A stretch of 64,000 bases of DNA from an uncultured delta proteobacterium (GTDB lineage: Bacteria; Desulfobacterota; RBG-13-43-22): NCBI GenBank assembly GCA_963711835.1, contig CAVQFQ010000008.1, positions 64,239 to 128,238 of the forward strand, read 5' to 3'. Positions 39,316-42,977 of the stretch are shown here, one piece after another. A program made the position numbers and the translations under genes. How positions within the stretch are numbered: the first letter of the stretch is position 1; each line of letters starts with the position of its first letter. The notes beneath the pieces are model-generated. The model did no database searches. It saw nothing but the letters and a program-made list of their open reading frames with translations, and was not told the DNA's origin.

Positions 39316-40923
39316 ATGGAGACCTCCAACGGTTCCCCCGCCACCCAACAGGTCGCCAAATCGGCCGGATCGGTGGGGATTGCCGTTTTCTGCAGCCGGA
39401 TTTTAGGATTGATCCGGGAGCAGGTCATGGCCGTTCTCTTCGGGGCCGGCTATTATATGGATGCCTTTGTGGTGGCTTTCCGGATCCCCAATTTACTGCG
39501 GGACCTTTTCGCCGAAGGCGCCCTGTCGGCCGCCTTTGTTACGGTCTTCACCGATTACGATCAGAAAAAAGGCCCGGAGGACACCTGGCGGCTGGCCAAC
39601 AACGTCCTGCTGGCCCTGACCCTGCTGCTTTCCCTGATCACCCTTTTGGGCATGATCTTTTCCGAGGAAATCATCAAAATCATGGCCCCGGATTTCAGCA
39701 AAGTGGCCGGGAAAACCGCCCTGACCCAACTCTTGACCACGATCATGTTCCCTTTCCTGATCCTGATCTCGGCAGCCGCGGTGGTCATGGGGATCCTGAA
39801 TACCAAAGGCCGCTTCTTTATCCCGGCCATGGCTTCCACCTTTTTTAATCTGGGCTCTATAGTCGGTGGTGTCTTGCTGGCCTGGGGGGCCCCGGCTTTT
39901 GGCCAGCCCCCGATTGTCGGCATGGCCGTGGGAACCTTAATCGGCGGATTTCTCCAACTGGCTATGCAGTTGCCTTCTCTGAAGAGAGCCGGCTTCGAGT
40001 GGCGGCCCCGTCTCTATCTCAGGGACGAAGGCTTGAAGCGGATTATGATCCTGATGATCCCGGCGATGATCGGCCTCTCCGCTACCCAGATCAATATTTT
40101 TATCAATACCAATTTTGCGGCCCGCTGTGCCGAGGGCAGTGTTTCCTGGCTCAATTATGCCTTTCGTCTGATGCAATTTCCGATCGGCGTCTTTGGGGTG
40201 GCCATCTCCATTGCCACCCTGCCGCTGGTCTCCCGCCAGGCCTCTCAGGGGGATTTGGCCGGCCTGAAAGCGACCTACGTCTCCTCCCTGACCATGGCCT
40301 TTCTGCTGACACTGCCGGCCTCTTTCGGGCTGGCCTTCCTGGCCGAGCCCATTATCCGGATTATCTTTGAGCACGGCCGTTTCAATGCCCAGGATACCCT
40401 CCATACCGCCGAGGCCCTGATCTATTATTCCGTCGGGCTCTTCGCCTATTCCTCGATCAAGATCACCGTGCCGGTTTTTTACGCCCTCAAGGATACCCGT
40501 TATCCGGTCCTGGCCAGTTTTCTGGCGGTAGCCACCAATATTATTTTTATTTCCCTGACCCTGGATTATTTCCAGCACCGGGCCATCGCCTTTTCCACCT
40601 CGATTACCATGATCATCAATTTCGTTTTTTTAAGCGCCGTGCTCTACCGCAAGGTCAAGGGCTACGACCTGGCCACCCTGTTATCCTCCCTGTTCAAGAT
40701 CGCCCTGGCCTCTTTCCTGATGGGCTTATTCGCCTACCTGCTTCATCAGGCCGCAGGCCTCATCCTGGATCAGACCCGGCTTTTAAACCAGATCATTTCC
40801 CTCCTGGTGGTTATCACCCTGGCGGTCTTCGTCTATTTTCTCCTGATTCGCCGGCTGGGGGTAGGGGAATACCGGGAGGTCATGGAAATGGTGCGGAAAC
40901 GGTTCCTGGGCCGGAAACTTTAA
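39316..40923 (+). CDS. murJ: Lipid II flippase MurJ (MviN)
   Basis: SRILGLIRE, DAFVVAFRIPNLLRDLFAEGALSAAFV and YAFRLMQFPIGVFG motifs. Confidence 0.96.
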   Translation: METSNGSPATQQVAKSAGSVGIAVFCSRILGLIREQVMAVLFGAGYYMDAFVVAFRIPNLLRDLFAEGALSAAFVTVFTDYDQKKGPEDTWRLANNVLLALTLLLSLITLLGMIFSEEIIKIMAPDFSKVAGKTALTQLLTTIMFPFLILISAAAVVMGILNTKGRFFIPAMASTFFNLGSIVGGVLLAWGAPAFGQPPIVGMAVGTLIGGFLQLAMQLPSLKRAGFEWRPRLYLRDEGLKRIMILMIPAMIGLSATQINIFINTNFAARCAEGSVSWLNYAFRLMQFPIGVFGVAISIATLPLVSRQASQGDLAGLKATYVSSLTMAFLLTLPASFGLAFLAEPIIRIIFEHGRFNAQDTLHTAEALIYYSVGLFAYSSIKITVPVFYALKDTRYPVLASFLAVATNIIFISLTLDYFQHRAIAFSTSITMIINFVFLSAVLYRKVKGYDLATLLSSLFKIALASFLMGLFAYLLHQAAGLILDQTRLLNQIISLLVVITLAVFVYFLLIRRLGVGEYREVMEMVRKRFLGRKL

Positions 40924-40964
40924 TCTTGACAATTTTCCCGAATTCATTAAAAAGTAGTCCAGGT

Positions 40965-41052
40965 GCCTGGGTGGCGGAACTGGTAGACGCAAGGGACTTA
41001 AAATCCCTCGGTCCTCGTGGCTGTACCGGTTCGATTCCGGTCCCAGGCACCA
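40965..41052 (+). tRNA. tRNA-Leu(TAA)
   Basis: GCCTGGGTGGCGGAACTGGTAGACGCAAGGGACTTAAAATCCCT...GGTTCGATTCCGGTCCCAGGCACCA. Confidence 0.97.
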
Positions 41053-41094
41053 GATTATTTTTTTTATTCGGCAGGACCGTAATTTGTATCTTAG

Positions 41095-41310
41095 TTAATC
41101 CCTGATCCCTTTTTCTTTTCGGGTGCTGATCCCGAGCACCGTCCAAAGAGGTCAAAGACCTGTGAAGGCTGTTATAAGGGCTATGGCGGCAACAACCAAT
41201 ACCCCTATACGCCACCCGGTGCTTAGAGGCGCCAATAACCCCGCCAGGATAAGGGCCAATCCGACAACGATCCTTATTCCCTTATCGATTCCGCCAACAT
41301 TCTTTTTCAT
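41095..41310 (-). CDS. DUF2892 (YgaP-like) membrane protein, probable selenoprotein (UGA at codon 53)
   Basis: SD ggagggg. Translation MKKNVGGIDKGIRIVVGLALILAGLLAPLSTGWRIGVLVVAAIALITAFTGL-UGA-PLWTVLGISTRKEKGIRD*. The UGA (41152-41154) sits at the Cys of the family GxCPxxxxLGIST motif. Confidence 0.82.
41122..41140 (-). promoter_or_regulatory. Candidate bacterial SECIS hairpin
   Basis: GGTGCT-CGGGATC-AGCACC begins 11 nt after the UGA and has a G-containing apical loop. Confidence 0.6.
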
Positions 41311-41439
41311 TTTTCACCCCTCCCTTCTGAATCTCTGATTTTTGTTTCTGCTGGACTGATGGCGGCCTCCCTGAAGTTTTGGGGGAAATCGGGCATGGTC
41401 CCCGTTTTCAGCCCGTCAGCCTGTCCCCGGAAAGAGCGT

Positions 41440-41710
41440 TTAAAGAAAAACCCGGTAATCCACTCTTAAAACCTTAGCCAACAGACGCGCATTTTTCTTT
41501 CCAATTGGCCGCTTGCCGTGTTCCATCATGGACAAGTGCCGTTGCGGTATCCCGCTCAACTCGGAAAGCCGGGTCTGTGTCATCCCCTCTTTGGTTCGGG
41601 ATCCCAGCAGGGAAACCCCCGGAAGGTCTTCTTTCCGGTATTCGGGGAAAGCCTCCCGCCAAGGAATCGAATCGTCAGGGTCAATAAAGCCCATCTCTTT
41701 CAAGACCTCT
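41440..41710 (-). pseudogene. C-terminal fragment of an XRE-family HTH protein (antitoxin-like)
   Basis: DSIPWREAFPE...GMTQTRLSELSGIPQRHLSMMEHGKRPIGKKNARLLAKVL. The native N-terminus is replaced by unrelated upstream sequence. Confidence 0.72.
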
Positions 41711-41905
41711 ACTGACGATGGCAGTAAATTTGTTGGAGGCGATGTTGGACAAGGTGTCAATTTGAAGAAACCTCTGGTCATTCAAATAGACCCTCGGTCG
41801 CCGTTCTCGAATAGAGAGGGGGTCAATGACCAAGTCGACCTTGACCCCATCGATCACCATCGAGAGGAATTGGGGGCCCTGCTTTATTTTCCTGAAGGGG
41901 TTCCA
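41705..41905 (-). pseudogene. Fragment of an AbiEii-like nucleotidyltransferase toxin
   Basis: IDGVKVDLV...IDTLSNIASNKFTAIVSR resembles the AbiEii KxxAxxxR region; too short and fused to the HTH fragment. Confidence 0.55.
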
Positions 41906-42150
41906 TATATCTCGACCATCCGGGTCCACTTTGTTCGGGTATAGGGCCTAAGCTTCAGCCTGGGCAGTTGTCCGGCGATTTCGCCTATTGTAAAAAATTT
42001 CAAGGTATCCACAACCCGGGCGTATTCCAAGAACCGGCTCATAAGCCAAAAATACAAAGAGGTGTTCTTCCGCTCCTGCAAACAAGACCGGAGCGTCGCC
42101 TCTTCGGTGAACTGAGGATAGTCCCAAAATGCGGCCTTCAGGAAAATCAT
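41884..42150 (-). CDS. Small putative antitoxin partner of the AbiEii-like gene
   Basis: FWDYP...RFLEY pattern; the 3' end overlaps the toxin start. Confidence 0.55.
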   Translation of the reverse strand: MIFLKAAFWDYPQFTEEATLRSCLQERKNTSLYFWLMSRFLEYARVVDTLKFFTIGEIAGQLPRLKLRPYTRTKWTRMVEIYGTPSGK

Positions 42151-42363
42151 GAGAAAAAACCCTCCCAATAAGGATTATATCTATAAAAGGTGAATTTAAC
42201 AACCAGGATAACCTCGGCGAATTAACCGAACGTTGCCGACAGGTCTCTCTCCGTTTTCCATTAGGTAGCCTCAATGGAACCTAACTTCGTTTTCCAGAAT
42301 TTCCCAGACAGCTACAATGGACCTGGGCCATCGCCAACTTTTTTGGAGATGATCACAACGCGT

Positions 42364-42977
42364 TTATGGCAGATAATCCTTTTTTAAAATCGAAAAGTCC
42401 TTCAGGTAATATAGCCGGATATCGGTCCGATCCTGAACCTCCATGTTCAGGGTGGTCTGTTTGGTCACCTGAATGCGCGACCCAATGAATCGGACCACGG
42501 GGATATGCGATTTTTTGACCAGGGCCATCGCCTCGGAGAGGGCCCGTTTGGTATTCTCGGGGCCGGCGACCAGCACCGAGGTCTGCATTTTCTGAAGGGC
42601 CTGGATGGCGCCCGGCTGATTGCATCGGAAGAAATCTCCGTAGCGCGCCCGGAGTTGATCGGCTGTTTCCAGGGGAAGCATCGTGACCAAGGCGTCACCG
42701 GCAAAGGTATTGATCGAAACACCCTCATCCTTCAGGATGAAATGATGCTCAATTCCGGTTCCAGGATCCCTTCGATGTGGTGGTTTCCGGCATCAATAGT
42801 GATCCGGGAACCGTCAATCGTGACCAAGGGGGCGGCTTGGCGGCAGGCCACAGCGACAATAAGGAGCAGGGCGATAAGGATAATCTGCTTCTCCGGCCTG
42901 GACAAAAAGAATCCTTTATGAAGGTGCGGTCGATCTTGATCGGAAGTCTTTTTAGCCGGTATTTCGGTCATAATCAC
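42364..42977 (-). pseudogene. Hypothetical lipoprotein split by a frameshift near 42752
   Basis: ORF 42732-42977 carries lipobox AVAC. The frame of ORF 42364-42690 stays open upstream through EHHFILKDEG and overlaps it. Confidence 0.55.

Follow-up and report, generated by a model that had tools for sequence, protein, structure and literature searches.

The window, a 64,000-nucleotide stretch of DNA, very probably contains a real, selenocysteine-encoding gene whose Sec-type DUF2892 subfamily is missing from the published lists checked. The gene lies on the minus strand, starts with an ATG at 41310 and runs for 71 codons (Table 1). Its translation reads MKKNVGGIDKGIRIVVGLALILAGLLAPLSTGWRIGVLVVAAIALITAFTGL-U-PLWTVLGISTRKEKGIRD-stop, where U marks a TGA at codon 53, the sole internal stop, after which PLWTVLGISTRKEKGIRD follows. 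That this UGA is recoded as selenocysteine (Sec) is, in our judgement, highly likely. An earlier note on this DNA had described a 71-codon frame with a lone internal UGA at codon 53, naming no strand, together with a Shine-Dalgarno (SD) sequence and a DUF2892/YgaP-like affiliation. The frame is borne out by the minus-strand translation, and no gene was found on the plus strand of 41095-41310; the SD corresponds to the purine-rich GGGAGGGG, and the affiliation to a full-length match of the read-through protein to PF11127 (YgaP-like_TM, DUF2892 in NCBI names; 72.5 bits over model positions 1-66 of 66, with a Pfam gathering cut-off of 25.3 bits). PF11127 is the only Pfam match of the 71-codon protein, and the host genome has no other PF11127 match; the DUF2892 family is present in 9 of 14 control genomes. 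NCBIfam 20.0 (June 2026) gave no match for the 71-aa query or for three other UGA forms. From this locus the ORF caller yields only a 52-aa piece that ends at UGA53.

Table 1. Positions in the window of the selenoprotein gene and its predicted elements.
Feature	Position	Strand	Basis
DUF2892/YgaP-like two-helix membrane protein gene, 71 aa if UGA53 is Sec	41095..41310	-	Translation; PF11127 match; low-confidence structure model
In-frame TGA, codon 53, at conserved Cys column; predicted Sec codon	41152..41154	-	Translation; homolog alignments
SECIS-like hairpin GGTGCT-CGGGATC-AGCACC, 6-bp stem, 7-nt loop	41122..41140	-	Folding; homolog comparison
Shine-Dalgarno-like GGGAGGGG, purine-rich, just 5' of gene	41317..41324	-	Read from sequence
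True stop codon TAA	41095..41097	-	Read from sequence

A tRNA-Leu(TAA) gene (40965-41052, +) is convergent to the selenoprotein gene, and an XRE-type HTH gene (PF01381; 41440-41781, -) adjoins it. Together with a small ORF upstream, the HTH gene resembles a toxin-antitoxin pair (41440-41929, -). No promoter-like excess was seen around the selenoprotein gene. None of the sequencing runs searched contained this strain (best share 0.18); two read contigs from relatives span the UGA, the list of their differences being incomplete. One contig of run X2 joins 41053 to 41451 and skips the selenoprotein gene, a weak join with a 24-nt side.

Homologs were gathered from relatives, from genome contigs (17 of 64 parts scanned), from 301 Nitrospirota genomes and by a metagenome pattern search that demanded an N-terminal motif and TGA-Pro-Leu, with no demand for a hairpin, and gave 18 loci. 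Counts were made after duplicates and rows in which the column could not be recognised had been dropped. At one column, TGA is found in 35 distinct genes and TGC or TGT in 78; the UGA is not the one-off nonsense mutation that the earlier note had named as a possible refutation. The note had placed a conserved family Cys at the UGA position and had proposed comparing UGA and Cys homologs there. The TGA genes include those of 19 genomes in two phyla: five from the window's phylum (the host G000, G012, G040, G055 and G081) and 14 from Nitrospirota, which we infer, from genome draws that do not overlap, to be a different phylum. G624 has a second copy of the gene, also with TGA and hairpin. Among the 13 best matches in the 301-genome Nitrospirota sample, 12 have TGA at the column. 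Frameshifts occur in three of the 35 TGA genes (L090, L096 and L099); L090 retains the stem, in which a G-C pair has become A-U through change on both sides. G453 and G586, considered as TGA carriers, were excluded from the counts, as both are Cys forms in which the TGA ends the gene.

The earlier note had also called for a check of the Sec machinery. The host genome (3.9 Mb, 89% complete) encodes tRNA-Sec(UCA) and contains selA, selB and selD, each over its cut-off, with selD having a TGA of its own. By motif scan, many other genes with a UGA plus a hairpin lie on contigs C4, C5, C16, C17, C19, C21 and C24 of this genome, which is selenoprotein-rich; by their motifs these UGA genes resemble those for formate dehydrogenase (two), HdrA (three), NiFeSe hydrogenase, and Grd/Prd-like, UGSC-motif and rhodanese proteins. 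Outside the window, near position 9906 of contig C23 (-), a gene for a NuoE-like subunit has an in-frame TGA in a T-V-A-U-L-G-A-C motif, with a hairpin. The host genome also contains dsrA, and the host is therefore probably a sulfate-reducer-like anaerobe. Beyond the host, for which the full set was examined, selA alone was checked, and it is present in all 19 TGA genomes. In the Nitrospirota sample, selA occurs in 146 of 301 genomes and in 11 of 11 TGA genomes, and it occurs in 0 of 18 next-best Nitrospirota genomes with a Cys form; the genomes are kin, hence not independent, and these co-occurrence counts give no clean statistic.

The hairpin begins 11 nt past the UGA, exactly where the earlier note had put its GGTGCT/AGCACC stem. 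Its loop begins 17 nt past the UGA and has a G at position 2, and these two features, along with the 7-nt loop and 6-bp stem, are shared with the bacterial SECIS consensus model as given in the Fig. 2 legend of PMC13188914. The bare hairpin, at -7.2 kcal/mol (-11.7 kcal/mol including a lower stem), falls just short of the -7.5 kcal/mol of that model, and it represents a predicted SelB site only. Folded alone, the hairpin has z-scores from -0.08 to -1.76, and 15 to 98 of 200 shuffles fold equally well; single-sequence folding, being no better than shuffles, was dropped as evidence. The significance of the hairpin comes instead from comparison across homologs. A hairpin test adapted from the SECIS model in PMC13188914 (stem of at least 5 bp, loop of 3-9 nt, G in the first two loop places, a distance of 16-37 nt to the codon, an energy no higher than -5 kcal/mol) was passed by 32 of 35 TGA genes versus 0 of 78 Cys genes, and by 10.5% of 4000 random TGAs of the host genome.

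According to the mechanism that we propose, SelB carrying Sec-tRNA would bind the hairpin, its predicted site, and insert Sec53, and translation would continue to the TAA. Sec53 would then sit where helix 2 ends; both termini being rich in Lys and Arg, the positive-inside rule makes a cytoplasmic position probable. We hold Sec insertion and this placement of Sec53 to be very likely. The AlphaFold model, which is of low confidence (mean pLDDT 65.9, pTM 0.38), contains helices at residues 5-26 and 31-50 and a short third helix at 54-59; alignments and model both give two hydrophobic helices, the conserved Cys column falling where the second one ends. No PDB chain matched by sequence, and Foldseek returned no match at E <= 0.001. 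A homodimer prediction for the Cys relative P0002 with a 40-row alignment gave no answer (score 0.00).

Residues recoded to Sec tend to be catalytic or redox-active, and Cys/Sec53 is therefore likely the working residue of DUF2892. Stand-alone members of the family have no established function in the available portions of papers that name it. As compared to stand-alone Cys-type members (PF11127; Azospira suillum Dsui_0042, Bradyrhizobium bsr5776), the protein has the same two-helix plan, the same G-x-C-P column and a full-length Pfam match, but here UGA/Sec replaces Cys, an internal hairpin follows, and the second Cys is absent; its inter-helix loop is also longer than in many proteobacterial DUF2892 forms. 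Another Cys residue is present in only 1 of 32 Sec forms, whereas a second Cys 9-14 residues on is found in 63 of 74 Cys forms. In a third step, the selenol would form a Se-S adduct on accepting sulfane sulfur or an oxidant, and would pass its load to a soluble thiol partner, for which a TusE/DsrC-type carrier, a rhodanese or thioredoxin are candidates; an outside partner is proposed because the Sec forms lack a second Cys to resolve the adduct.

Gene neighbours were scanned at 30 Sec loci plus the window (126 hand-picked neighbours; raw counts with no background rate) and at 42 Cys loci (112 neighbours). Antioxidant or sulfur-relay neighbours (superoxide dismutase, catalase, thiol peroxidase/redoxin, rubrerythrin/ferritin, rhodanese, sulfite-oxidase-like and TusE/DsrC) occur at 9 of the 30 Sec loci, with TusE/DsrC at four; none was present at the other 21 or in the window, and no operon is conserved across the 30 Sec loci. 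At four Nitrospirota loci (L040, L100, L141 and L147) a stress cluster near the Sec gene comprises Fe/Mn superoxide dismutase, TusE/DsrC, an 84-88 aa protein and PfpI, with rhodanese, thiol peroxidase or catalase also present at some loci; the 85-aa protein of this cluster has no Pfam or NCBIfam match. Among the Cys loci, seven have an MBL-fold neighbour, and five of the six MBL-fold neighbours tested further match the sulfur-dioxygenase part of Blh, under the full-length cut-off. In published work, a Cys DUF2892 gene is induced approximately 10-fold in sulfide oxidation (PMC5358917), deletion of the Azospira Cys gene delays sulfide oxidation only slightly (PMC5358917), and other Cys DUF2892 genes share one operon with an FAD oxidoreductase and TrxC (PMC6710368) or lie near a rhodanese gene (PMC5295598); the excerpt of PMC9163753 does not mention DUF2892. 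From these neighbours and papers on Cys forms, we tentatively propose, at somewhat less than even odds, that the protein is a membrane-anchored selenol that relays sulfane sulfur or absorbs oxidants under sulfide or oxidative stress.

The main rival to sulfur relay accepts the selenoprotein but has its selenol bind a soft metal or a heme/Fe-S partner, or gate a path for small anions, a role proposed for E. coli YgaP. YgaP is a homodimeric membrane rhodanese, in which a rhodanese is fused to a two-helix membrane domain; its C159, located where the second helix ends, moves on thiocyanate binding, and an export role was proposed (PMC4730233). YgaP shares the Pfam family with the window protein by name, but the 71-codon gene has no rhodanese domain, has its own SD and stop, and finds no sequence match in the PDB. 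The window UGA column may, by analogy, be the C159 column, an equivalence drawn from the F-C-G context and the shared Pfam family rather than from alignment, which weakens the comparison. Cytochrome P460 genes adjoin or lie near the Sec gene at 4 of 30 loci (L084, L139, L140 and L141), Crp/Fnr regulators stand ahead of the Cys form at 7 of 42 loci, and one homolog has U-x-U, all of which would suit metal or heme binding or anion gating. No metal-resistance operon recurs among the Sec loci, however, and we regard this rival as somewhat less likely than relay.

Sec recoding itself is best judged from what follows the UGA, for which a set of 30 in-frame main-clade genes was used (leaving out the three frameshifted copies and two divergent forms). 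Pro54 is present in 30 of 30 genes through all four Pro codons, and upstream, change at four-fold sites is nearly saturated (mean modal base 0.46, range 0.33-0.61, 17 sites). Such retention of residues despite synonymous variation argues against UGA53 as a true stop, which would leave a truncated 52-residue protein or a pseudogene passed down within a single clade and which we consider very improbable, even though it would fit the 52-aa products in databases. The protein collection stores this gene in the 52-aa form (P0004), and 51 of its 65 matches stop exactly at the column, mostly at 52 aa (DNA was inspected for some of the 51); two of these 51, MDI6802172.1 and MDA8103951.1, carry the NCBI label 'DUF2892 domain-containing protein'. 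A true stop would also agree with both modelled helices finishing ahead of the UGA, with TGA serving as a normal stop in the host genome (as in ATGA, where the end of the RNase PH gene and the following ATG overlap), with the three frameshifted copies, and with Cys at the column in a 97%-identical protein. It is harder to reconcile with the stop at the column being always TGA in the 35 genes counted, with selA in 19 of 19 genomes, with the lack of any terminator-like site in 40900-42400, and with the frozen wobble bases of the hairpin.

In those wobble positions, the four-fold modal base reaches 1.0 at Val58, 0.93 at Leu59, 0.97 at Gly60 and 0.93 at Thr63, and all 30 genes use AGC for Ser62. 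Codon 57 ends in G in 29 of 30 genes, whichever of six amino acids it specifies; in the one gene with T, the partner position shows a C-to-A change, giving a T-A pair. A similar L-G-[IF]-S-T peptide in four Cys genes is encoded by other codons. Formal covariation on 25 sequences found 86% of cells paired and two-sided change in three of seven pairs, with a score of 0.074, no higher than that of slid controls (up to 0.084); as the stem is nearly invariant, little covariation is to be seen. On these sequence comparisons, the hairpin just 3' of the UGA appears to be under selection. An alternative genetic code, with UGA read as Trp, Gly or Cys, is the least probable reading of all, since the sole UCA-anticodon tRNA among 48 is tRNA-Sec and ordinary genes end in TGA, although the entries P0002 and P0003 show C at position 53.

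Those two entries, known as protein records only, bear on how the clade evolved. P0002 is the protein 97% identical to that of the window, and L113 is a DNA-confirmed Cys form within the Sec clade, with a broken stem and a selA-positive genome; the three Cys forms indicate that Sec is replaceable. In a quick tree (112 rows, 62 columns, Sec/Cys column masked, many open forks), P0002, P0003 and L113 nest among Sec rows (group support 82, with three more Sec rows unresolved at the base). Sec/Cys labels change 8 times on this tree versus 28.1 when shuffled, and at least three changes are forced by well-supported branches. Reversion to Cys is the simplest reading of these three forms. Two divergent homologs, L021 (G055:C27:19850-20038, +), with W-U-G-A-C and a different pairing register in its hairpin, and L030 (G040:C18:4224-4433, -), with two in-frame TGAs (Y-U-A-U), a strong hairpin and a selA-positive genome, are placed among Cys forms on long branches. 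Each may be a separate origin of Sec, as a single case; hairpins of their kind are found at about 5% of random TGAs, and no further copies of either type were found in class-level searches (one genome each) or in a 401-genome phylum search. Among 20 family relatives searched with the window protein, G012 alone carries a UGA form, a distribution that makes the gene look accessory, and its sharing between the window's phylum and Nitrospirota suggests transfer, in either direction.

Published selenoprotein lists were checked for the family. PF11127, DUF2892 and YgaP are absent from the 119 selenoprotein families of the 2026 table (Table 1 of PMC13188914), in which Haft and Tolstoy 2025 families appear; BSepDB Table S2, Haft and Tolstoy 2025 and Deng et al. 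2026 could include the family. The three terms were likewise not found in the available deep-Sep text and four supplements (PMC12013277), where a positive control for the supplements worked, or by term search in the Haft and Gwadz preprint and the BSepDB main text. Full-text literature searches did not find DUF2892 with selenoprotein or YgaP-like with selenocysteine, and the papers that pair YgaP and selenocysteine are unrelated by title. Predicted membrane selenoproteins listed in Table 1 of PMC13188914 (YeeE/YedE, SaoP, the SO_0444 family and a putative mercuric transport protein) are alike in having a Sec/Cys pair, UGA homologs, a downstream hairpin and truncated entries, but belong to Pfam families unrelated to PF11127.

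New bacterial Sec families are regularly reported, so the finding extends a known system and overturns none. It adds one family to selenoprotein lists, would correct dozens of entries cut at 52 residues, and makes DUF2892 function testable directly with one point mutant. More speculatively, and with the odds somewhat against it, DUF2892 may be a minimal sulfur-relay catalyst of the membrane in which the single active residue changed to Sec more than once, with reversions to Cys: in a large single-Sec clade common to Nitrospirota and the sulfate-reducer-like phylum, and in separate U-x-x-C and U-x-U forms with their own hairpins. If this is true, these proteins would rank with the smallest integral membrane selenoproteins, and a catalytic residue would be named for a bacterial and archaeal family.
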